A DNA stretch of 57,471 nucleotides. Source: Candidatus Magasanikiibacteriota bacterium. Its GTDB lineage: Bacteria > Patescibacteriota > Patescibacteriia > Magasanikbacterales > UBA10003. Position numbers and translations under genes: made by a program. The notes under the pieces are model-generated. The model was not told where the DNA came from. It did no database searches and saw nothing but the letters and a program-made list of their open reading frames with translations. Location of the stretch: assembly GCA_035400705.1 (NCBI GenBank), contig DAOMZV010000001.1:1-57471 (forward strand). Reading direction: 5' to 3'. Of the stretch, positions 4,153-31,120 are shown piece by piece. Numbering within the stretch: position 1 is the stretch's first letter; every line of letters starts with the position of its first letter.

Positions 4153-5556
4153 TTACGCCGCGTTCTTTCCCTTCTTGGGCTGGGGCTGGCCGCGACGAGT
4201 GTCGCCGCCACCGCCCTTGCCCTTGTGGGCCTCGCGGAAGGCGCGATCCGCCTCCCGCTTGGCCGCCTTCGCCTGTTCGACAGCGGCCGGATCCATCTTG
4301 GCCCGCGTCCGTTCGGTCTTGCCCGTGTGGCGGATGACCGGACGGGCGGCGGAGTCGAAGGTCTTCTGCTGCTGGATCTGGCGCGGCGGATGGGCCGCCA
4401 GCCAGTCCTTGTGTGTCAGCGCGCAGCGGAGCTGGGCGATTACCGCCCTGCGAACCAATTCAGATTCGCCAGCGGCCTTGGCTTCCGCAACAGCGGCCTG
4501 GGCTTCGGCGATGAAATTGTCCAGGTCGGCGGAACCGACGGCGGAGAACTGCTCACGCAGCCTCCCAACATAGGCGAACCTGGCCTTTTCGGTGTACTCC
4601 TCGTACACCTGGGCCGTGATCCGTTCCTGCCAGCCTTCCACGGTCTGGCCAGCTTCGGCCTTGGCGTTCAGGAACCTGTCCATGGCGCGAGCCAGGGACA
4701 CATGATCCCAGACCTGCGATCCGTCGGCGTACGCCGCAGATTCGGACAGGATCGTGGTCACTTCAGCGATCAGCGCGTCCTGCGCCGCCTGCCGCTGAGC
4801 GGCCTCGGCTTCGCGTTCGGCGAGCCACCTCTGGGTTTCATCCCAGTGATGGAACCTTTCGGCCTTGCCGAGCAGCTTCCTGAGGCGGTTGGCCACCACC
4901 TCCTCACAGACGAAACAGAGGCGGAGGACTTTTGCCTCCGTCGCCGGGATCATCTTCCCGGTGAACATCGACTTCACGAAAACAGCACCGTCGATGTCCT
5001 TTTCCAGCGCCTTGACATCGGAAACGCGCTGAAAGTACCCGTTCGGCTGCGTCTGGATAAAGGACAGGGCGACAGCATCGTCGACCGGAATCCCGGCGCC
5101 GACGAGAACTTCCGGGTGCGCCAGTTCGTAGGCGCGGATCCGGGCCGCTTCGGCCTTGGCTTCGGCGTCGGCCTTGGCTTCGGCGTCGGCCTTGGCTTCG
5201 GCCGCGTCACTGTCGATCTTGGCCTGGATCAGTTCGAGAATCCTCGGGCCACGCGTTCCCATTTCTTCCAGCCCGACCACGAGGTCGGACTGGTCATCTT
5301 CCGTGAGAGAAAAGAACTTCTGAACGATTTCCGAGTCGGACAGGAGTCCGACCGTTTCGATCTTCAGAGCTACCGAGTCCGCATCAAGACCCAGCGCCAT
5401 TTTCAGGCGCCGGAATTCGTTTCCGGCCTTCTTGACCGCCGCGCGGAAACGCGCCTTGGCCAAGATCCCCTCGACCTCGACGGCGGCCACGGCCGCGTCG
5501 ATTTCGCTGTCGAGCATTTCCGCGAGATTCGAGAAAAACTTGTTAATCATGTCCAT
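4153..5556 (-). CDS. hypothetical protein of unknown family: Ala/Glu/Lys-rich, (AEAKAD)n repeat, basic Gly/Lys/Arg C-terminal tail
   Basis: Open frame of 467 codons, very unlikely by chance at this GC, with GC-rich third codon positions. GGAGG lies 8 nt upstream of the ATG at 5554-5556; the track's TTG at 5571 would overlap that SD. Has its own promoter and terminator. I recognise no catalytic or family motif. Confidence 0.75.
   Translation of the reverse strand: MDMINKFFSNLAEMLDSEIDAAVAAVEVEGILAKARFRAAVKKAGNEFRRLKMALGLDADSVALKIETVGLLSDSEIVQKFFSLTEDDQSDLVVGLEEMGTRGPRILELIQAKIDSDAAEAKADAEAKADAEAKAEAARIRAYELAHPEVLVGAGIPVDDAVALSFIQTQPNGYFQRVSDVKALEKDIDGAVFVKSMFTGKMIPATEAKVLRLCFVCEEVVANRLRKLLGKAERFHHWDETQRWLAEREAEAAQRQAAQDALIAEVTTILSESAAYADGSQVWDHVSLARAMDRFLNAKAEAGQTVEGWQERITAQVYEEYTEKARFAYVGRLREQFSAVGSADLDNFIAEAQAAVAEAKAAGESELVRRAVIAQLRCALTHKDWLAAHPPRQIQQQKTFDSAARPVIRHTGKTERTRAKMDPAAVEQAKAAKREADRAFREAHKGKGGGGDTRRGQPQPKKGKNAA
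5152..5205 (-). repeat. 18-bp in-frame tandem repeat (about 3 copies) encoding AEAKAD/AEAKAE
   Basis: ggccttggcttcggcgtc occurs at 5152-5169 and 5170-5187, with a diverged third copy from 5188. Confidence 0.85.
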
Positions 5557-5732
5557 TTCCAGTACCTCCAAAATGGCCCCAAGGGGGCCTTCCCTAATAG
5601 CTTTGAGCAGGAACCCTCCCGCCCAACCGGTAAAAACGGCTTAGCTAAGTCATCTTTACCGGCAGGACGAAACTTCCCGCCTTATTTAAGGAACAACCTT
5701 GTTTAAAGGGTTTGATCTATTTCGGACCAGAA
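5557..5732 (-). promoter_or_regulatory. structured 5' leader of about 175 nt with a terminator-like hairpin just before the RBS
   Basis: Minus strand: hairpins ggcggga-agtttcg-tcctgcc and ccggtaaa-N20-tttaccgg (with an internal palindrome cttagctaag), then ggcccc-ctt-ggggcc followed by AUUUUGGAGG. Confidence 0.5.
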
Positions 5733-5738
5733 CAAATT

Positions 5739-5767
5739 AGTATAGCACATTTGACAGGTTTTGTCAA
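5739..5767 (-). promoter_or_regulatory. sigma70-type promoter of the high-GC gene
   Basis: Minus strand TTGACA (5762-5767), 17-nt spacer, TATACT (5739-5744). Confidence 0.7.
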
Positions 5768-5779
5768 GAGGTGTATGCT
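5751..5779 (+). promoter_or_regulatory. sigma70-type promoter, probably for tRNA-Lys
   Basis: Plus strand TTGACA (5751-5756), 17-nt spacer, TATGCT (5774-5779). It interdigitates with the opposing promoter. Confidence 0.55.
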
Positions 5780-5877
5780 ATTGATTGAAACTTTTATAAT
5801 TTTATCCACGGCCCACGAATGATTATTGGTCATATACATTACAATATTGAAAGAATACTTAGAATAAAATCCATTAT

Positions 5878-22320: not shown

Positions 22321-22353
22321 ATCAAGAAAAGAGACCGGCTCAGCCAGTCTCTT
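22321..22353 (-). terminator. hairpin terminator after the 778-aa membrane/TPR gene
   Basis: Stem aagagac/gtctctt with an inner ggc/gcc pair; on the minus strand it is followed by a T-rich tract. Confidence 0.55.
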
Positions 22354-22359
22354 TATAAA

Positions 22360-24696
22360 CTATTTCCTTTTGTTAGGTGCTATTGGCAAAGTAGATGTGG
22401 GAGTCTCGGTAACTACCGGTACAGCATTTAAGCTTTCAATTTTTTTTATTAAATCACCATTACCTGGATTTAAATTTAAAATTCGCTGGTACAAATCAAC
22501 TGCTTGTTTTTTTAAGCCAGTTTTTTCATATAAATAACCCAAAGCGTATAAAGCATTAGAATAATTAGGATTTAAAATTATAGCCTTTTTAAAAGCTGCC
22601 TCGGCTAAAGCATAATCTTTGGTTGTTCCAGAATTTAAATAATATTGACCTAAATATAACAGATATTCAGCGTTATTTACTCCATAAGTCAAACCCCTCT
22701 CCATAATTGAAATAGCTCCTGGTAAATTTTTCTGAACTTCATTTAAAGTGGCTAATTGTAAATAGCCAATCAATAAATTTGGTTTTAAACTTAAAGCTTT
22801 TTCAAAATTAGTCTTAGCTTCGCTATAACGTTTTTCAACTAATTGAGCATTGCCCAAACTAACATATAACAAAGGATTATTTCCCTCTAATTGAATTGCT
22901 TTTTCTAAAGAAGAAATCGCCCAAGAATTAGCTTCTGGAGTTAAAGATCTGGCATTAGCATACATCGTAGAAAGATACTCCCAAGTAGCGACATTTTTAG
23001 GAGAAATTTCAGTGGCTTTTCTAGCTGCATTAACAGCTGAAACCAAAAATTGTGACGCAGCTTCTGAATTTCCGCCATTTTGAACTAATTCCCCCGCTCG
23101 GTTAATAAAAGCATCGGCTAAACCTAAATAAAATTGGGAACGAGAATAATTATAGTTTAAAGATTTAGAAAAATACTGTAAGCGTTCTTCATAATTTTTA
23201 GATAGACCCTGATTATAAGTTATTTCCGCAGTATAAAATCTTCCTAAATAAACACCCAAAAGCGCTAAAAAGGTGTACAAAACAATAAAAACAAAAGATG
23301 TTACCAAGGCGTATTGCGGAGTAGTTTTCAAAGAAAAATTTAAATAAGCAAAATCATTTTTAACCACAAAAGCGCTAGAACAAATAACTAATCCTAGTAA
23401 AAACCAAAAAATCATCCACTGAGCGGCTCCGAAATTGACTAAAAATAAAGAAACTAAACTCAACAACCAACCGCAAGAAATTAACCAAAAAAACAACAGC
23501 GAGGTAGAAGTTTCTCCCCAATCAGTTTCTGTTTCATTTTCAAAAAATTTTTTGCGATTTTTATTATAAGCGATATATTTTAACCAAACACCTGATAAAA
23601 AACCCAAAACAATTAAGATGGTTCCTAAAAAAACCAGGGTTATTAAAACTCCATTAGTAGTTAGCCAACTAAAAAAGGCGCTATAAGATTGATTGAAACG
23701 AAGATTCCAAGCAAAATTTAAATTCATTTCATCAGGACGAAAAAGGGAGAAATCGTAAGTATAGGTGCTCGGTCCAGTTCCAAAAATAAAATTTCTAGTT
23801 CCAGCCATCAAAGTTTTTTGAGTAATAGACCAAGATAAGCTGGAACTAAGAGAAACTTCTAAAGGCAAATCTTTAGTTAAAAATTTTGGTTCACCAAAAA
23901 AAATAAAAAAGAGAGAGCCCAACAAAAAAAATAAAATCAAAGAAGTAAAAAGCGGTTTAGTTTTTTCTAGATGACTAATAAAAAACACCGCTAAAAGAAA
24001 CAAGCCAATGGCAGTAATTAACCAAATCAACTTAAAACCAAATAAAATTAGACACGCTAAAGAAGAGATAAAAACTAAGAAGCTAAAAACATCTAGCCAG
24101 CGTTCTTTTTTCTTTAAGGTAATATAACCCAAAGAGAGAATAAAAATTAAAGACTGGAAAAAACCAAAAACAATATTGGATGAACTGAACAAATTAAATT
24201 GTGGTAAATCTAATTTAGTCCAACTAACTAAAGAAGTGGCGGCAAGTAAAAAATAAAGTGCGGAAAAAAAACCAGAAAGTAAAAAAGTAAAAAATAACCG
24301 AGTGATTTGTTTAGTAGTGTTAATTTGCTGAATAATTAAAAAGAAAAAAACTAAAAGAAAGCTGATCCCAACAAAGGATAAGTTTAAGGCGCTAAAATCA
24401 CCCCAAAAACTTAAAGAACGGTCCTGTGAAAAAAGACAAATAACAAAATAACCCAGCCAAAAAATCAACAATGGTATATCTAAAACAGTTCTTTTTATTT
24501 TTACTTCTCTAGCTATTACTATCTTGGTTAAAAAACCTAAAAAAGCCAGGAGAGTTAAAAAATAAAATAAAAAATATTTATTAAATTCTATCTTTTCTAA
24601 AGTAAGAGATGAAAAGAAAATTGGCACTAAAAAAATTATTAAAAACAAGCATGCATTAATAAACCAATTAAGTGAAAAAATATTTTTTTTATCCAT
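22360..24696 (-). CDS. O-antigen-ligase-like polytopic membrane protein with a C-terminal TPR domain
   Basis: About 470 aa of TM helices followed by about 6 TPR-like repeats (...YLGLADAF..., ...ALSLKPNLLIGYLQLA..., ...AIILNPNYSNALYALGYLYEKTG...). Confidence 0.6.
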   Translation of the reverse strand: MDKKNIFSLNWFINACLFLIIFLVPIFFSSLTLEKIEFNKYFLFYFLTLLAFLGFLTKIVIAREVKIKRTVLDIPLLIFWLGYFVICLFSQDRSLSFWGDFSALNLSFVGISFLLVFFFLIIQQINTTKQITRLFFTFLLSGFFSALYFLLAATSLVSWTKLDLPQFNLFSSSNIVFGFFQSLIFILSLGYITLKKKERWLDVFSFLVFISSLACLILFGFKLIWLITAIGLFLLAVFFISHLEKTKPLFTSLILFFLLGSLFFIFFGEPKFLTKDLPLEVSLSSSLSWSITQKTLMAGTRNFIFGTGPSTYTYDFSLFRPDEMNLNFAWNLRFNQSYSAFFSWLTTNGVLITLVFLGTILIVLGFLSGVWLKYIAYNKNRKKFFENETETDWGETSTSLLFFWLISCGWLLSLVSLFLVNFGAAQWMIFWFLLGLVICSSAFVVKNDFAYLNFSLKTTPQYALVTSFVFIVLYTFLALLGVYLGRFYTAEITYNQGLSKNYEERLQYFSKSLNYNYSRSQFYLGLADAFINRAGELVQNGGNSEAASQFLVSAVNAARKATEISPKNVATWEYLSTMYANARSLTPEANSWAISSLEKAIQLEGNNPLLYVSLGNAQLVEKRYSEAKTNFEKALSLKPNLLIGYLQLATLNEVQKNLPGAISIMERGLTYGVNNAEYLLYLGQYYLNSGTTKDYALAEAAFKKAIILNPNYSNALYALGYLYEKTGLKKQAVDLYQRILNLNPGNGDLIKKIESLNAVPVVTETPTSTLPIAPNKRK

Positions 24697-24703
24697 AATT
24701 ATT

Positions 24704-26491
24704 TTAAAAAGAAATAACCTGTCCAGGTCTAATTTTTTGATTTTTATTTTGATGATTTTTATCTTTATTTAAATCTGTTTGGAGTGTGTTTTTCTTAGTA
24801 GTAGAGCTAATAGATTGGGGTTTCATTTTTAAAGCCTCATTTAAAGAAATCCCTGGTAAATCTGCTTTTTTAACCTCTTCGGTTTTAACTTCTTTAGGTT
24901 TGGGAACTACTTTTTCTTCTTTAGTTTGATTAAATTTTTTATTATATCCGCTGATTCCCTCTGGAGAACTCATGACTATTTTATAGCAATCAACACACAA
25001 AACTGGCCGTTTACCATCTGGCTTAAAAGGAACAGTGGTAGTTTTGTTACAGCGACTGCAAACTGCCTCAAATCTATTTTCTGAAATTTTTATTTTTTCT
25101 TTCTTAGGTTCCTCAGTTACTAATTCTCTAGTTGGTAGAGCTATCCCGTCTTCAACTTCAGGATCTCCCGAACCTTCAGCCCCTTCTAGCAAGCCGCTCC
25201 AACGCATTATTTTTTCTTCTATTTTTTCTCTATCCTCAGTAAATCTTTCTCTAGAAACTTTAATAACTTTTTCGGCATTGCCGGTTTTTTGAAATTCGCC
25301 GACAAAAGTTGAAGCACTAAAGGGCGAAGAAGTCACGCCATCAATCATTAATTTTAAATAAACATTATATTTTCCCAAATTAACCAAATCTTCGGCTAAA
25401 AATTCTGGTTCAAATTCTTTAGCTAAAAATTCCGCATCTTCCCCCCCTACTCTAAAACAAACTAGGGTGCCAACGTTACCAAAAACAGCGGCGGCCACTT
25501 CTTCTTCTAATTGTTCGATGTATTGATGAGCCAAAATCAAACTTAAACGATATTTTCTGGCTTCGGATAAAATATTAGCAAAAGATTCTGTTGCAAAATT
25601 CTGAAATTCATCAACAAACAGAAAAAAATCTTTACGTTCGATTTCTGGTATATCAACTCTTTCCATAGCTGCCAATTGGATTTTGGTGATAAGCATACCA
25701 CCAAGCAAACGCATATTTTCTTCACCAACCCTACCCTTGGATAGATTAACTAGAAAAATCTTCTGATCATCCATTAATTGACGAATATTAATAGTTGACT
25801 TAACTTGAGCGAGAATATTACGAATAATTGCCGAAGATAAAAATTGCCCAACTTTATTTTGAATAGGTGCAATAGCTTCGGTAGCAAATTTTTCTGTGTA
25901 ATGAGCAAACTCGTCGGTCCAAAAAGTTTTTACCACTGGATTTTTAATCTGAGCTACTACCCTTTTTCTAAATTCTTTATCTACTAATAAACGATTGATA
26001 CCCAACATCGTAGAACCTGGATAATCCAAAAGAGCCAAAATACAATTATTTAAAATATATTCCATTCGAGGACTCCAGACATCTGGCCAAATTTTCTTAA
26101 ATACACCCATTAAACCAGACGAAACCAAATGTTTGTGACGAGGATCAATCGCTTCCATCACATTAAAACCAATGGGGTGGTCTTGGTCAGCTGGATTAAA
26201 ATAAACTACATCATTAATACGATGATTAGGAATATAATCTAATATTTTTTCTACAAAATCACCATGTGGATCGACTAAACCGACACCGTTACCATTATAA
26301 ATATCAGAAAGAATCATTTGTTCCATCATGGTGCTTTTACCCATGCCCGTCTTACCTAATAAATACATGTGACGGCGACGATCATCTGTTTTAATACCAA
26401 AACGCCTCTTCTGACCTCGAAAATTGGTTTCGGCAAAATAAGTTATATCACTTTTATTCAAAAATGGATTTTCAATTAATTCATTGTCCAT
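24704..26491 (-). CDS. type IV coupling protein-like (TraD/TraG/VirD4-type) P-loop ATPase with a C-terminal zinc ribbon and Lys-rich tail
   Basis: Walker A LLGKTGMGKST, Walker B FFLFVDEFQNF, SEARKYRLSLILAHQYIEQL, then CSRCNKTTTVPFKPDGKRPVLCVDC. Confidence 0.7.
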   Translation of the reverse strand: MDNELIENPFLNKSDITYFAETNFRGQKRRFGIKTDDRRRHMYLLGKTGMGKSTMMEQMILSDIYNGNGVGLVDPHGDFVEKILDYIPNHRINDVVYFNPADQDHPIGFNVMEAIDPRHKHLVSSGLMGVFKKIWPDVWSPRMEYILNNCILALLDYPGSTMLGINRLLVDKEFRKRVVAQIKNPVVKTFWTDEFAHYTEKFATEAIAPIQNKVGQFLSSAIIRNILAQVKSTINIRQLMDDQKIFLVNLSKGRVGEENMRLLGGMLITKIQLAAMERVDIPEIERKDFFLFVDEFQNFATESFANILSEARKYRLSLILAHQYIEQLEEEVAAAVFGNVGTLVCFRVGGEDAEFLAKEFEPEFLAEDLVNLGKYNVYLKLMIDGVTSSPFSASTFVGEFQKTGNAEKVIKVSRERFTEDREKIEEKIMRWSGLLEGAEGSGDPEVEDGIALPTRELVTEEPKKEKIKISENRFEAVCSRCNKTTTVPFKPDGKRPVLCVDCYKIVMSSPEGISGYNKKFNQTKEEKVVPKPKEVKTEEVKKADLPGISLNEALKMKPQSISSTTKKNTLQTDLNKDKNHQNKNQKIRPGQVISF

Positions 26492-26494
26492 AAA

Positions 26495-27925
26495 CTACAT
26501 GGGTAAATTGGGTGGCGGAATGCTTTTTCTTTCAATTGCCCTGATTAAACCACCGGCGCGTTCGGTAGGCAAAGAAGCTGGGGGCTGACCTTTTTTAGCC
26601 TCAGCAGTAGCCACCATTGGAGCCTTAACAGTAAGTAAAGGAAAGTGCCAAATTGAAGCTAGTTCTTCTATATTCATTAAAAACTCGGAAGCGCCTTTCC
26701 AACGACTGCGCGCTTTGTAGGCATTAACCAATCTAGTTTGACGCCAAGCCAAACGTTCATCTTTAAATAGATAGTGAACATGAGTTCCAATTTTATGCAT
26801 TTCTGGTTTTAGACCATTAAGATTTTCTGTATTAAATTGTTTAATTGAACCGGTAAAACCATAAGCAATCCTATTTTTACTAAAAGATTCTTTTTTTGCT
26901 AGATAAATAAAACGAATTTTAGTAGCGTAACAAATTTTAGAAATTTTTTGTTCCACTTTTTCTATATCTGCTTTATATCCAGGAGGTAAATGTAACATTA
27001 ATGACGGGGCTTCGTCCTTCTTTTTTTCTTCTTGACCAAATCCTTGATAATCAGTAAAAACACTTTGTGCTGCCGTATCCATTGCTTTAGCTGGCAAGGA
27101 GCCAATCTCTGCAATCAAACCAGCTTTAGCTTTTTTAGGAGGAGCACCAGTCATTTTTTTAACTACCTCTTTGCCGTGCGCTTTCCAACCACCCTCCCAA
27201 TTAGAACCTAGGGGGGACCATTCATTATCAATTGGTTTAATTAAAATCTGCATCCCAGCAAACTCACCCTTACCCAAACGACTCAAAGTTTCCAACATCG
27301 CCGCTAAAGGATCTTTATAAACATTTTCCGCACTACTGTGTTCAAACTCGGTATAAGTTCTAATCGGATAAACTTGCTCTTTTCCAGTCATAACATATTC
27401 CGCCCCCCACAAATCATATTCTTTACTGGGAAAATGAGAGGGAAAATCTTTAGCATAATCCTCTATCTCAGTGATTTCCGCATCAGGATATTGAGCATAA
27501 ATAGCCGCTTCTATTAAATCACGATATTTTTTATTCGTGCCAATAACAAATTGGGTATAACCTTCAATACTAATAATTTCGAAACTAAACCAGGGCTGAG
27601 AATATCCGGCTAAATAAGCATCCTCAATATCAGGGTTTTTATGAGCACCTGCTAGATGAGCAAAAATTTGTTCAACGGCTTTAGGAGTTTGTTCATTTCC
27701 CTTGGGGACATCAATAGCTAAAAAAATCCATTTAAATTTGCTTAAGTAACTGCCAATTCTATTTAAAATATAAAAATCTAAAAAAAGATCATGAAAAATC
27801 AACATTAAAACAAACCAGCCACCGTGGACAAATAAGAAAAAATATACTCTGAAAGGAGGGGCATAAAGCAAAAAATTTCCCAATGCCTCCAAATAATCCC
27901 AATTAATATTAATAGCAAAAGGCAT
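26495..27925 (-). CDS. hypothetical membrane-anchored protein, operon partner of the coupling-protein-like ATPase
   Basis: 476 aa with two N-terminal TM helices and a large soluble domain. Its stop lies 3 nt before the ATPase start. No motif recognised. Confidence 0.6.
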   Translation of the reverse strand: MPFAININWDYLEALGNFLLYAPPFRVYFFLFVHGGWFVLMLIFHDLFLDFYILNRIGSYLSKFKWIFLAIDVPKGNEQTPKAVEQIFAHLAGAHKNPDIEDAYLAGYSQPWFSFEIISIEGYTQFVIGTNKKYRDLIEAAIYAQYPDAEITEIEDYAKDFPSHFPSKEYDLWGAEYVMTGKEQVYPIRTYTEFEHSSAENVYKDPLAAMLETLSRLGKGEFAGMQILIKPIDNEWSPLGSNWEGGWKAHGKEVVKKMTGAPPKKAKAGLIAEIGSLPAKAMDTAAQSVFTDYQGFGQEEKKKDEAPSLMLHLPPGYKADIEKVEQKISKICYATKIRFIYLAKKESFSKNRIAYGFTGSIKQFNTENLNGLKPEMHKIGTHVHYLFKDERLAWRQTRLVNAYKARSRWKGASEFLMNIEELASIWHFPLLTVKAPMVATAEAKKGQPPASLPTERAGGLIRAIERKSIPPPNLPM

Positions 27926-27931
27926 ATTATT

Positions 27932-28321
27932 TTAATGCCCAGAATAGGGTTTTTGAACAAACTTAACAATTAACCAATAAACTAGGGCTAAAACTGGTGC
28001 ACAAATCCACCACCAATTTTTAGGACCGGCAAAATAGCCCAACCAAAACACAAACACAAAAATTAACGTGATAACAAAAGAAACAATATCTCTAATAATT
28101 TCGTCAAATAACTTTAACTTAACAGCCTGTCCTAGATATTTACGATGTTTCCAAAAACTCCAGATAATTATAACTATAAAGACCCATTTTTTACCTAAAA
28201 TACCTGAGTAAAATCCTCCTATAAAATCCAAAAACAGCACGAATGTTAAAAGAAAAGCTGCTCCGTGCTTCATCGAAGGATTGTCGTTATAATTATACGA
28301 CATCAAAGAACCAAAATTCAT
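27932..28321 (-). CDS. small integral membrane protein
   Basis: About 4 TM helices, placed 6 nt upstream of the 476-aa gene. Start is uncertain (ATG 28321 or 28303, TTG 28348). Confidence 0.5.
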   Translation of the reverse strand: MNFGSLMSYNYNDNPSMKHGAAFLLTFVLFLDFIGGFYSGILGKKWVFIVIIIWSFWKHRKYLGQAVKLKLFDEIIRDIVSFVITLIFVFVFWLGYFAGPKNWWWICAPVLALVYWLIVKFVQKPYSGH

Positions 28322-28460
28322 AATTTCTAGGGATAAATTCAAAAACAAATTATTCGCTTTTGATAAAGCCCAACGAAATTCCTGGTTCGCTTAAAAGTTT
28401 TGTTTTGCAAAACTTAAGCCTGTCTAAGAATAAGTTTCGTTGTTAATAAACTTATTTATA

Positions 28461-29378
28461 TTATACACCTTTTTTGTGAGAAAGGCGATTCCAAGTCACC
28501 AATAAAGGGCTGGCAATAAAAATTGAGGAATAGGTACCAAAAGTAACACCGATAATTAAGGTGAGAACAAAATATTTAACTGATTCCCCACCGAAGAAAA
28601 AGGTGGCCAATAAAACTAATAACACAGTTAGAGAAGTATTTATGGAACGAGTTAAAGTTTGATTAATACTGCGATTGACAACTTCTTCAAAATTTTCCCG
28701 AGAAAATTTATACAAATTTTCTCTAATTCTATCAAATACTACAATGGTATCATGAACAGAAAAACCTAAAACAGTTAATAAAGCAGTAATAAATAATGTG
28801 TCAACTTCTATTCCCATAAAATGACCCAGAGCAGCAAAGACACCGATTGGAATGATAATATCATGAAACAGAGCTAAGACAGCGCAAACACCGTATTTCC
28901 AAGATTGAATTGATCGGGAAACTTTACGAAAAGCAAAAGCAATATAAATAATGATAGCTAATAAAACAAAGAAAACCGCCCAAAAAGATTTAGAACGCAA
29001 ATCGCTACTAACGGTTGGACCAATCATTTCAAATCTTTTTTCAATAATGGAATTGATTTCAGTACTCCCAGTTAATTCTCTTAAAGAAGATAAAACTTGT
29101 TGATGTTGAGCCTCATCAATTAATTTCATTTTGATAATTGCCCCCTGTTCTCCCACTGGAATAACACTGGGTTTACCCACTAAAGAAGCTAGTTTGTCTT
29201 CAATTTCTTGATTAGCTGGTCTTTGATCTTTAAAATTAACTTCCACTAAAGAACCGCCGGTAAAATCTAAACCTGGTTTTAATCCCCACATAATTACAAA
29301 CACCAAGCTAACTACAATCAAAATTCCAGAAAAAATCAAGAAATAATTCTTATTTTTTACAAAATTAAAATTAGTCAT
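28461..29378 (-). CDS. secF: protein translocase subunit SecF
   Basis: GLDFTGGSLVE, 6 TM helices, HDIIIPIG, and adjacency to secD. Confidence 0.9.
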   Translation of the reverse strand: MTNFNFVKNKNYFLIFSGILIVVSLVFVIMWGLKPGLDFTGGSLVEVNFKDQRPANQEIEDKLASLVGKPSVIPVGEQGAIIKMKLIDEAQHQQVLSSLRELTGSTEINSIIEKRFEMIGPTVSSDLRSKSFWAVFFVLLAIIIYIAFAFRKVSRSIQSWKYGVCAVLALFHDIIIPIGVFAALGHFMGIEVDTLFITALLTVLGFSVHDTIVVFDRIRENLYKFSRENFEEVVNRSINQTLTRSINTSLTVLLVLLATFFFGGESVKYFVLTLIIGVTFGTYSSIFIASPLLVTWNRLSHKKGV

Positions 29379-29389
29379 AGATATAAAAA

Positions 29390-31120
29390 TTATTTATTAT
29401 TTCCACCCAAAAACCAACGCTGGTGCTTAACCCAAGGACCAATAAAATGCAATAAAATTCTAGTCACGGTAATAGCGGAGAACATACTAACTAAAATACC
29501 AATAGCCAAAGTTACTGCAAAACCTTTAACCGTACTAGTACCAAACCACATTAAGATGGCGCAAGTGATTAAACTAGAAACATTAGAATCACGAATAGAT
29601 AACCAAGCTCTAGAAAAACCTTCATTTAAAGCTTGGGTGATAGACAAACCACGACGCAATTCTTCTTTAGTGCGTTCAAAAATCAAAACATTAGCATCCA
29701 CAGCCATACCAATAGAAAGAATAAAACCAGCAATACCAGCTAAGGTTAAAGTTACAGGAATCGTCTTAAAAATTGTTAAAGTGATAAAGGTATATAGAAC
29801 CAAAGCAAAAACGGCCAATAAACCGGGCAAACGATAAAATAAAATCATAAACAAAGCTACAGCCACTAAACCAATTAAACCGGCCATTAAACTTTTATCC
29901 AAAGAATCGGAACCCAAACTTGCTCCCACGGTTTGTTGACTAATCAGAGTTACTGGTACAGGCAAAGCCCCGGCGTTTAATCTTTGGGCGAGAGTCTTAG
30001 CTTCAGTTACAGAAAAGTCCCCAGAAATAACCGCTTCGCCATCAGTAATAGCTTCGTTAACAACTGGAGCACTAATCACTTGCCCATCAAGAAAAATAGC
30101 CACTTGTTTTTCAATATTACGTTGAGTGATTTCACCAAACAACTTTTTACCTTCATCATTAAAAACCAAAGACACGGTAGGCATGCCAGTGTTTGGATCA
30201 AACTGAACGGCGGCTTTTTTTAGCTCTTGCCCATCTAATCCGGTAGCTTGCCAAGCATCGGTATTGATATAATCAGCCGTACTCTTGGTGGAAATTAAAA
30301 TATGGCTAGCCTGATATTCAGTAACTTTCTTACCGTCCTTTTCCGTTTCTCTTTCTCCAGTTTTTTTAATAATATGATAACCGTATTCAGTTTTAACTAA
30401 TTTTTTAGTAATTTCGTTGACTTTCAAAATTTTAACCGCCTCATAAAATTCTGCCACCATTGATCCTTGAGAAAACCAGCCTAAATCACCGCCGTTAGCC
30501 GCGCTGGCTGTATCTTCAGAATTTTTAGAAGCTAAAGAAGCAAAGTCGGCATTGTAAGCTAAGGCCTGTCGCAATAAATTATTAGCCTTCTTTTCTGCTT
30601 CTTTATTATATTTGTCCATTTCAGTTTGTTGTTCAGCAGTTAAAGAAGTTACAGTATTTTGTTCTTTAAATTCCAAAATTGGAGTTTCACCAATCATTCT
30701 AATAGCTTCATTAACATCCTTAACACCAGCTAATTCCACTACTACTCTCCAAGAATCACCGGATTTATCAGTTTGGATGATTGGTTCAGAAACACCTAAA
30801 GAGTTAACACGGCGTTCAATAACATCTCTGACACCTTCTACCGCGTCTGCCTGACTACCATTAGCAACTTTACTAACATCAGCTTCATAAACCAAATGAG
30901 TTCCACCTTGTAAGTCTAAACCTAATCTAAAAGGACTTTTAAAAGGCAAATGACCTAAATTTATTTTAGTTTTTTCCTTAAACCAATCCGAAGAATTGTT
31001 ATAAATTTGAGGAAAAGAAAAAAGAACAGTAAAAACCAACAAAACTATCACGCCAACCGTCCCCCATTTAATGCGATTGCGTGGAATTGCGTTAGTAACG
31101 CGAAGATCACGAATGCCCAT
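29390..31120 (-). CDS. secD: protein translocase subunit SecD carrying a parvulin-like (PpiC-type) insertion in the first periplasmic domain
   Basis: SecD core LGLDLQGGTHLVY, VAIFLDGQVISAPVV, LNAGALPVPV and 6 TM helices. Inserted segment ...ADFASLASKNSEDTASAANGGDLGWFSQGSMVAEFYEAV...TEYGYHIIKK...ASHILIS. Confidence 0.85.
   Translation of the reverse strand: MGIRDLRVTNAIPRNRIKWGTVGVIVLLVFTVLFSFPQIYNNSSDWFKEKTKINLGHLPFKSPFRLGLDLQGGTHLVYEADVSKVANGSQADAVEGVRDVIERRVNSLGVSEPIIQTDKSGDSWRVVVELAGVKDVNEAIRMIGETPILEFKEQNTVTSLTAEQQTEMDKYNKEAEKKANNLLRQALAYNADFASLASKNSEDTASAANGGDLGWFSQGSMVAEFYEAVKILKVNEITKKLVKTEYGYHIIKKTGERETEKDGKKVTEYQASHILISTKSTADYINTDAWQATGLDGQELKKAAVQFDPNTGMPTVSLVFNDEGKKLFGEITQRNIEKQVAIFLDGQVISAPVVNEAITDGEAVISGDFSVTEAKTLAQRLNAGALPVPVTLISQQTVGASLGSDSLDKSLMAGLIGLVAVALFMILFYRLPGLLAVFALVLYTFITLTIFKTIPVTLTLAGIAGFILSIGMAVDANVLIFERTKEELRRGLSITQALNEGFSRAWLSIRDSNVSSLITCAILMWFGTSTVKGFAVTLAIGILVSMFSAITVTRILLHFIGPWVKHQRWFLGGNNK

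Follow-up and report, generated by a model that had tools for sequence, protein, structure and literature searches.

Within a stretch of 57,471 nucleotides (nt) from a Candidatus Magasanikiibacteriota bacterium (assembly GCA_035400705.1, contig DAOMZV010000001.1, positions 1 to 57,471; hereafter the window), two adjacent genes on the minus strand encode a protein of 476 amino acids (aa) with the Pfam domain DUF8128 and a 595-aa ATPase devoid of transmembrane helices. By sequence comparison, the two are the halves of a single type IV coupling protein (T4CP) whose gene has been split. We consider it highly probable that the pair, a split member of a monoderm subclass of T4CPs, arose by a single ancient fission and would act as a motor handing a nucleic-acid substrate to a membrane channel, plausibly that of a type IV secretion system (T4SS). 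Overall, the genome carrying the window amounts to 709 kb in 35 contigs and is 99% complete; the window lies on its contig 1, and the relatives closest to it are Candidatus Magasanikbacteria (Patescibacteria/CPR). As described in an initial annotation of this DNA, the pair forms part of a group of four tightly packed open reading frames (ORFs) on the minus strand, separated by gaps of 6, 3 and 7 nt. A gene for a small membrane protein precedes the pair, one for a protein with tetratricopeptide repeats (TPR) follows it, and secDF lies upstream of the whole group. The features of the pair are the following.

26495..27925, minus strand: DUF8128 (PF26449) protein, 476 aa, putative detached membrane-anchor half of the T4CP (Pfam on homologues, PHROG, fold)
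24704..26491, minus strand: TrwB/VirD4-type P-loop ATPase without transmembrane helices, 595 aa (Pfam, phmmer, PHROG)
26330..26356, minus strand: Walker A motif GKTGMGKST, aa 46-54 (sequence motif)
25523..25615, minus strand: Walker B motif VDEFQNF (aa 293-299) and SEARKYRLSLILAHQ block (aa 309-323) (sequence motif)
24986..25060, minus strand: CxxC-x17-CxxC treble-clef zinc ribbon (zf_Tbcl_2 / TIGR04272), aa 478-502 (motif and profiles)
24707..24736, minus strand: extreme C-terminal peptide KIRPGQVISF, candidate docking motif that closes the disordered, Lys-rich tail (motif counts)

One coupling protein encoded by two genes

The profile phrog_5156, which has 824 positions, covered both proteins colinearly: its positions 75-311 corresponded to the 476-aa protein and its positions 408-806 to the ATPase (1e-55). 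The same profile matched the ATPase part of plasmid T4CPs from Peribacillus and Embleya. Fused forms were found as well. One is gp156 of Bacillus phage G, with 28% identity over the ATPase by tblastn; another is encoded in the same genome as the split pair, where an 889-aa paralogue occupies positions 2418-5087 of contig 31 (plus strand) and adjoins dnaX. In most other families of Patescibacteria, the best DUF8128 match was located within ORFs of 830-1190 aa that ran on into an ATPase. Because of the colinear match and the existence of fused forms, we regard the two genes as halves of one protein. The initial annotation had taken the 476-aa protein for an independent partner of the ATPase with a large unknown soluble domain; it is instead the N-terminal half of that very T4CP, encoded separately, and the domain is known to Pfam as DUF8128.

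In phage G, gp156 is annotated as 'MsbA-like' and has homologues in the SPO1-like Bacillus phages CP-51 (gp91), JL and Shanette. It belongs to a mini T4SS-like set (JN638751.1, 87772-93336) that also comprises gp153 (TrbL_4) and gp155 (P-loop_TraG, VirB4-like).

In a maximum-likelihood tree of 86 ATPase domains, the copies from Patescibacteria all grouped to one side of the outgroups from plasmids and phages (94 in the Shimodaira-Hasegawa-like approximate likelihood ratio test, SH-aLRT). Short fused proteins of about 800-890 aa, here called B-type and including the product of the contig-31 gene, formed one clade with a support of 100 and a long stem. The split forms made up a single clade too (SH-aLRT 100), which argues for a single fission, and the long fused proteins (A-type, 830-1190 aa) were paraphyletic. 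Patescibacteria contain two ancient paralogue lineages, A-type and B-type.

The two lineages have their own upstream neighbours. At related loci, B-type genes were preceded by the gene of a small acidic partner. On contig 31, a 172-aa acidic protein (1910-2428) overlaps the start of the fused 889-aa B-type gene, and its C-terminal block, FK.KGEETA.KI...LPGVN.FF.EQEAKIK, is also found in other genomes upstream of their B-type genes. Fused A-type genes were preceded in 9/19 loci (L142-L156) by the gene of a conserved 346-389-aa protein that combines an N-terminal sigma-70 region-4-like helix-turn-helix (HTH) with a C-terminal tandem HARE-HTH. By tblastn this protein had no counterpart in the window genome, where only the region-4 part was matched, on contig 30. 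In several families (L146-L158) the fused A-type and B-type genes form a tandem, and secDF lies 0.3-3 kb downstream of them in convergent orientation; this arrangement suggests an ancestral neighbourhood B-A-secFD.

The motor half

All ATPase motifs quoted in the initial annotation are present, namely Walker A, Walker B, the SEARKYRLSLILAHQ block and the CxxC-x17-CxxC motif, and its assignment to the TraD/TraG/VirD4 type was confirmed by T4CP profile models that matched above their curated cut-offs. PF10412 reached 52.4 bits (cut-off 20.5) over aa 36-350, PF12696 32 bits (cut-off 22) and PF02534 23 bits (cut-off 20.1), and DUF87 matched as well. The Pfam matches included TrwB_AAD_bind (5e-14), TraG-D_C and zf_Tbcl_2 (7e-13). 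Among the NCBIfam models TIGR04272 matched and TIGR03743 and CedD did so weakly, and phmmer returned TrwB and DotL among the PDB sequences. Hydropathy gave no transmembrane or hydrophobic segment anywhere in the 595 aa.

The Walker B and SEARKYRLSLILAHQ blocks were invariant in the alignment of fused paralogues. The PF10412 alignment of the window ATPase spans the region of the all-alpha insert, and in the AlphaFold2 model of the fused paralogue (predicted local distance difference test, pLDDT, 80.6) seven helices (aa 541-655) are placed between Walker A and Walker B. The ATPase half of this model alone resembled TrwB at a TM-score of 0.61-0.64, followed by Cag-beta and HerA, a structural comparison that applies to the fused paralogue's model and not to the window ATPase itself. 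A replacement of FtsK by the window ATPase could be ruled out since a genuine FtsK (194 bits) is encoded on contig 17; the FtsK motor model PF01580 remained below threshold on the window ATPase, with 14-16 bits for a cut-off of 24.

The C-terminal part follows the order acidic linker, zinc ribbon, Lys-rich tail, the latter with 17 Lys in 90 aa; the ribbon and the tail agree with the initial annotation. The zinc ribbon was present in 44/64 split-type ATPases versus 0/24 fused A-type tails. The same CxxC-x17-CxxC domain occurs in small Methanosarcina proteins for which zinc binding was demonstrated (PMC12704099). Apart from the window ATPase, the genome encodes a single zf_Tbcl_2 protein, which has 176 aa, an RGG-rich N-terminus and a Lys-rich tail, and looks like a nucleic-acid-binding protein. 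Its gene lies on contig 24 (about 5311-5841), directly after that of an EngB-like GTPase. A nucleic-acid substrate of the motor is hinted at by the RGG- and Lys-rich composition of this protein and by the sigma-region-4/HARE-HTH protein that precedes fused A-type genes.

The tails of A-type proteins often end in G-x-x-[IVLT]-x-[FLI], which takes the form RPGQVISF in the window ATPase. The pattern [GNDE][QEDGKRT]x[IVLT]x[FLI] occurred within the last 16 aa of 39/60 split and 9/22 fused A-type proteins, in 3-7% of control windows of the same tails and in 1/36 B-type proteins. Since the pattern was picked by eye, the enrichment is no more than indicative.

The membrane-anchor half

The assignment to PF26449 was precomputed for the cluster of this protein and for almost every homologue listed. 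In place of the two N-terminal transmembrane helices of the initial annotation, we found one clear transmembrane segment (aa 27-45). The AlphaFold model (pLDDT 84.9) has a short helix at residues 10-21 and one long helix at residues 24-62.

DUF8128 is clearly homologous, on the level of profiles, to the N-domain of an 870-aa plasmid T4CP of Peribacillus (hhalign probability 97.2%, E 3e-11, 248 columns). The gene of the latter (NZ_CP068052.1) adjoins replication-relaxation, TcpE and conjugal-transfer genes. The plasmid homologue of Embleya is likewise located in a PrgI/ATPase/Replic_Relax/NlpC-P60 cluster, and the match of DUF8128 to its N-domain (hhalign probability 21%) is suggestive only. 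The homology with the Peribacillus protein, the cluster in Embleya and the neighbourhood in phage G mean that a subclass of genuine monoderm T4CPs has DUF8128 as its N-domain.

On the level of predicted folds the domain also resembled VirB4. When the DUF8128 model was submitted to Foldseek, TrwK/VirB4 of R388 was the sole significant PDB match (E 5e-4, probability 0.99); among viral models, phage G gp156 was found at E 1e-16 and the VirB4-like gp155 at E 6e-5. For the model of the fused paralogue, the match to full-length TrwK extended over about 950 columns (E 1e-14). TM-scores for the VirB4 fold matches were low, at ~0.3, hhalign against the VirB4 and TrsD profiles of Patescibacteria was negative (probabilities of 2% and 0.4%), and a search of the PDB sequences with the DUF8128 profile by hmmsearch returned nothing. 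Since sequence profiles give no link, the VirB4 likeness stands on predicted folds, and the cytoplasmic alpha/beta domain of DUF8128 may be said to fold like the N-terminal domain of VirB4 at fold level only.

TrwK/VirB4 being the top Foldseek match of both DUF8128 and the full-length fused paralogue, and gp155 being matched as well, the pair might be read as a VirB4-class assembly ATPase, i.e. a divergent second VirB3-VirB4 unit that energises the assembly of a pilus or channel. The order of a two-transmembrane protein, N-domain and ATPase indeed mirrors VirB3-VirB4. The VirB4 models, however, do not claim the ATPase, whereas those for T4CPs do: PF03135 had no match anywhere in the genome, PF19044 matched only the VirB4-like gene of contig 26, and TIGR00929 gave 19 bits for a cut-off of 643. 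VirB4 chains aligned to the fused-paralogue model with a TM-score of about 0.3, well below the value for TrwB and the ATPase domain, and the small upstream protein matched neither PrgI nor VirB3. Together with the negative hhalign comparisons, this makes a VirB4-class function improbable, and we retain the assignment of the pair to the T4CPs.

Conservation and vertical inheritance

Phylum-wide counts were made on 201 evenly sampled genomes of Patescibacteria, and neighbourhoods were counted over 80 related loci, 73 of which had enough sequence for linkage statistics. DUF8128 was present in 199/201 genomes, usually at 2-4 places per genome. The ATPase gene lay directly downstream of DUF8128 in 53/73 loci, and mnmA and alaS were found downstream in about 22. 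Where the pair was unlinked, the orthologue of the ATPase, with 55-68% identity, was encoded elsewhere in the genome, as was a fused paralogue, in 5/5 genomes checked. Identity with the copy of candidate division Kazan was still 52-55%, and the G+C content of the pair is typical of the genome. The DUF8128-ATPase module is ancient, vertically inherited and strongly constrained.

This conservation bears on the idea that an integrated conjugative element left the pair behind as a remnant, or that the ATPase serves in anti-phage defence. PADLOC did match its mad8 model to the ATPase at E 1e-18, and HerA more weakly, and relatives of the protein occur on plasmids and phages. Yet the family is near-universal in the phylum, its tree follows the lineages, its conservation is high and the G+C content of the pair is typical, the opposite of a patchy occurrence that varies between strains and has mobile-element flanks. 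Many species have the pair between secDF on one side and mnmA/alaS on the other. Neither an integrase nor a relaxase, a methyltransferase or any other defence partner was seen nearby, and PADLOC had no match in the three neighbouring proteins. The context and the conserved core neighbourhood rule out a mad8/HerA defence system, and taken as a whole this explanation is very improbable.

Relation to type IV secretion

The initial annotation had called the ATPase an orphan. This holds within the window, which has no VirB4, VirB6 or relaxase matches according to whole-genome searches, but not for the genome, where contig 26 carries a VirB6-like/PrgI/VirB4-like cluster. The order on this contig (217-8842) is a TrbL/VirB6-like gene that the end of the contig truncates, a gene for a 583-aa unknown protein, PrgI, a 238-aa gene in the TrsD position, a VirB4-like gene (631 aa, the sole one in the genome), one of 194 aa and a ComF-like gene. 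The ComF-like phosphoribosyltransferase carries a double zinc ribbon. VirB4 was found in 192/201 genomes of the phylum; as both VirB4 and DUF8128 are near-universal, their co-occurrence cannot separate the models.

Previous work has reported 5,713 VirD4-type/T4CP homologues in 2,918 Patescibacteria genomes and raised a possible exaptation (Quinonero-Coronel et al. 2025, PMC12102498). For Southlakia epibionticum, transposon sequencing (Tn-seq) showed the T4SS genes to be essential, and this T4SS was said to have no coupling or relaxase protein that could be recognised (Wang et al. 2023, PMC10633639). From neighbourhood only, which for SEML1_0293 means a sigma-like gene upstream, SEML1_0293 (921 aa) is probably the A-type orthologue of the window pair and SEML1_0142 (1019 aa) the B-type one. 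SEML1_0142 and a 139-aa gene upstream of it were essential in the Tn-seq data (PMC10633639).

Several observations weigh against a motor that serves a T4SS with nucleic acid. In the window genome the pair and the T4SS cluster lie far apart, and no relaxase of the families PF03432 and PF13814 was detected in this 99%-complete genome. Only 148 of the 5,713 T4CP homologues lie near virB4 (PMC12102498), and three genomes that are 99-100% complete (G117, G058, G135) have DUF8128 without a VirB4 match. In Southlakia, SEML1_0293 was non-essential and the 349-aa 'RpoS' gene upstream of it essential (PMC10633639), which argues against an obligatory role of the A-type protein in the essential T4SS function. 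That the tail binds nucleic acid is a guess based on its composition. The low fold scores and negative profile comparisons of DUF8128 with VirB4, and the indirect structural comparison of the ATPase, are to be counted here as well. As no relaxase of these families was found, classical conjugation is unlikely, as had already been thought from the window.

Some of these points would be explained by a T4SS-independent housekeeping translocase composed of the split motor, the small membrane protein and possibly SecDF, working in DNA uptake or export or in protein handling by Sec. The secDF neighbourhood is indeed long-lived: secF was found at most 600 nt upstream of DUF8128 in 29/73 loci and at most 3 kb upstream in 46/73, and secDF is also close to fused A/B copies in several other families. 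In the window, the genes from secD to the TPR gene are co-directional and free of terminators. The rarity of virB4 near the family, the complete genomes with DUF8128 and no VirB4 match, and the non-essential likely orthologue in Southlakia next to its essential T4SS point the same way. On the other hand, secF was not within 3 kb in 27/73 loci, and in other families secDF is convergent, 0.3-3 kb away and not operonic. Gene order is generally conserved in such small genomes. No channel component is encoded alongside the split motor, and every inspected homologue of the same architecture from outside the Patescibacteria sits in a T4SS or conjugation cluster. We consider such a housekeeping translocase rather unlikely, although clearly the strongest competitor of the T4SS-coupled T4CP. 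In the window, secDF is a conserved neighbour whose functional tie to the pair is suggested by position only.

A bolder reading combines both ideas and sees in the A-type split motor a living VirB4-VirD4 intermediate, i.e. an autonomous, T4SS-independent translocase of DNA or nucleoprotein at the Sec translocon (SecDF), made up of the two-transmembrane microprotein, an anchor with a VirB4-like N-domain and a VirD4-like ATPase whose tail would bind nucleic acid. It has little probability in our view; if true, a SecDF-positioned translocase of this kind could take up or pass nucleic acids at the interface between epibiont and host.

Comparison with known systems

With the VirD4/TrwB/TraD T4CPs (TrwB of R388, 1E9R/1E9S; Cag-beta; DotL), the window ATPase shares the P-loop nucleotide-binding domain with its Walker A and B motifs, Arg-rich blocks, the all-alpha insert and the families PF10412, PF02534 and PF12696, together with a C-terminal tail that likely serves partner recognition. 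It differs from them in that its polypeptide has no transmembrane helices, the anchor being located on the separate DUF8128 protein, so that the about 350 extra residues (DUF8128) between anchor and motor here belong to another protein. It further differs by its zinc ribbon and Lys-rich tail, by being chromosomal, phylum-wide and vertically inherited, and by the lack of a relaxase or adjoining T4SS genes at the window copy.

The T4CP of Peribacillus psychrosaccharolyticus (WP_051387410.1, 870 aa, NZ_CP068052.1) has the same DUF8128-like N-domain and ATPase, and that of Embleya (WP_331738717.1, 812 aa, NZ_CP108778.1) probably has the same two-domain architecture. Both are single polypeptides encoded on plasmids next to replication-relaxation, TcpE/PrgI, VirB4-like and cell-wall-hydrolase genes, whereas the window copy is split and chromosomal and has none of these beside it. 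Phage G gp156 is also a single polypeptide of DUF8128 and ATPase, located beside VirB4 and VirB6 homologues and without the zinc ribbon.

A recognised class of T4CPs lacks a transmembrane domain and cooperates with membrane proteins that are encoded separately; TraJ/TraI of pIP501 and the R27-type TraG-TraJ pairs belong to it, and there, too, a soluble ATPase depends on an adjacent membrane protein to be located at the membrane (PMC7434980). In the window, however, the partner is the detached half of the same ancestral protein and is much larger (476 aa, with a folded cytoplasmic domain). The likeness to VirB3-VirB4 (TrwM-TrwK of R388, 7O42/8RTD) lies in the fold of the N-domain, in the small two-transmembrane protein encoded upstream and in the succession of N-domain and RecA-like ATPase. 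The window pair differs from it in having no profile similarity to VirB4/TrsD and an ATPase nearer to T4CPs, and the genome has its own VirB4 on contig 26.

The homologues counted in PMC12102498 and the Southlakia genes SEML1_0293 and SEML1_0142 are of the same gene family, with about two copies per genome away from virB4. The family and its presence in Patescibacteria are thus already published, and the N-domain is listed by Pfam as a DUF. DUF8128 was named in no paper of the literature searched, and PMC12102498 contains no mention of secD, secF or zinc. The papers searched contained nothing on a split form, on an N-domain resembling VirB4, on two paralogue lineages or on the neighbourhood with secDF.

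Flanking genes and possible transcription unit

The genes and sites around the pair are listed below.

29390-31120, minus strand: secD, conserved upstream neighbour
28461-29378, minus strand: secF, conserved upstream neighbour
27932..28348, minus strand: small membrane protein, 138/129 aa, tandem duplicate of a two-transmembrane microprotein of ~53 aa (ORF, homologues)
22360..24696, minus strand: TPR membrane protein, 778 aa, with about 12 transmembrane segments and C-terminal TPR repeats (TPR families at aa ~550-750)
22328..22354, minus strand: strong terminator-like hairpin (12-bp stem, then T-rich run) directly 3' of the TPR gene

The position of secDF upstream of the cluster was confirmed, with secF ending 112 nt before the small gene; past the TPR gene, mnmA begins after 72 nt. 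Promoter and terminator calls were made by consensus scans, which are no proof of function. The best promoter-like site on the minus strand was located upstream of secD (31181-31153), no terminator-like site was found by the scan between secF and the small gene, and the hairpin at 22328..22354 is likely the end of the transcription unit. The genes from secD through the TPR gene possibly form one transcription unit. In relatives, SecD has Rotamase/parvulin Pfam matches inside its periplasmic head (e.g. locus L001, 4840-6879).

The small ORF gives 138 aa when read from a TTG and 129 aa from the ATG at codon 10, the two lengths of the initial annotation. Hydropathy indicated 3-4 transmembrane segments, and the microprotein unit carries the motif R-H...Y-x-G-Y-x-S/A-G...WWW. 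Searches of Pfam, NCBIfam, PHROG and PADLOC yielded no match. Single-unit homologues of 52-62 aa were encoded directly upstream of DUF8128 (gap at most 23 nt) in about 17/78 loci, and duplicated forms in loci L009 and L042. Because the microprotein stays beside DUF8128 even at loci whose ATPase has moved away, we tie it to DUF8128; it would be a lineage-restricted membrane accessory of this protein, present only in part of the split clade.

The 778-aa protein had been described as O-antigen-ligase-like with TPR. Its TPR repeats and membrane character were recovered, but not the ligase part: neither the whole protein nor its N-terminal 497 aa alone (E at most 1) matched Wzy_C (PF04932) or O-antigen ligase, and a Wzy/O-antigen ligase identity is rejected for want of any hidden Markov model support. 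The linkage of the cluster in related genomes, which is kept for the DUF8128-ATPase pair, did not extend to this gene, which had a homologue in only 2/80 related loci, with linkage in just 1 of the 80 (L009, the sole clear case), where it did not adjoin the pair. It is a local insert, co-transcribed by position and outside the conserved module. Since the TPR gene is not kept together with the other genes in relatives, the initial proposal of a four-gene minimal translocation device is rejected; the core consists only of DUF8128 and ATPase.

Proposed mechanism and significance

The pair is most likely a nucleic-acid-handling motor. DUF8128, with its one transmembrane helix, would tether the soluble TrwB/VirD4-like ATPase to the membrane, where the ATPase presumably assembles as a hexamer. 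The microprotein may join DUF8128 at the membrane, its likeness to VirB3 beside VirB4 being an analogy by position and topology. The tail of the ATPase would be an arm that recruits substrate or partner, as are the C-terminal tails of other T4CPs. Driven by ATP, the motor would pass nucleic acid or nucleoprotein to a membrane channel, most plausibly the relaxase-less chromosomal T4SS encoded by the VirB6/PrgI/VirB4 cluster of contig 26. We propose the coupling to a T4SS tentatively, as a possibility that comes close to its opposite in weight. The motor is probably needed only conditionally, as is suggested by the A-type gene of Southlakia, which appears to be dispensable; the main partner of the T4SS may instead be the B-type copy, which is essential.

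Patescibacteria account for a large share of bacterial diversity, have tiny genomes and live attached to host cells. Since DUF8128 is kept in 199/201 genomes, the machine to which it belongs is probably central to their biology. In the single species tested, their chromosomal T4SS proved essential, and candidates for its coupling protein bear on what crosses the envelope. The two lineages of the family probably differ in essentiality, and one of them is cleanly split. The DUF8128 N-domain, which is shared with plasmid T4CPs, bears in addition on the divergence of VirB4 and VirD4.

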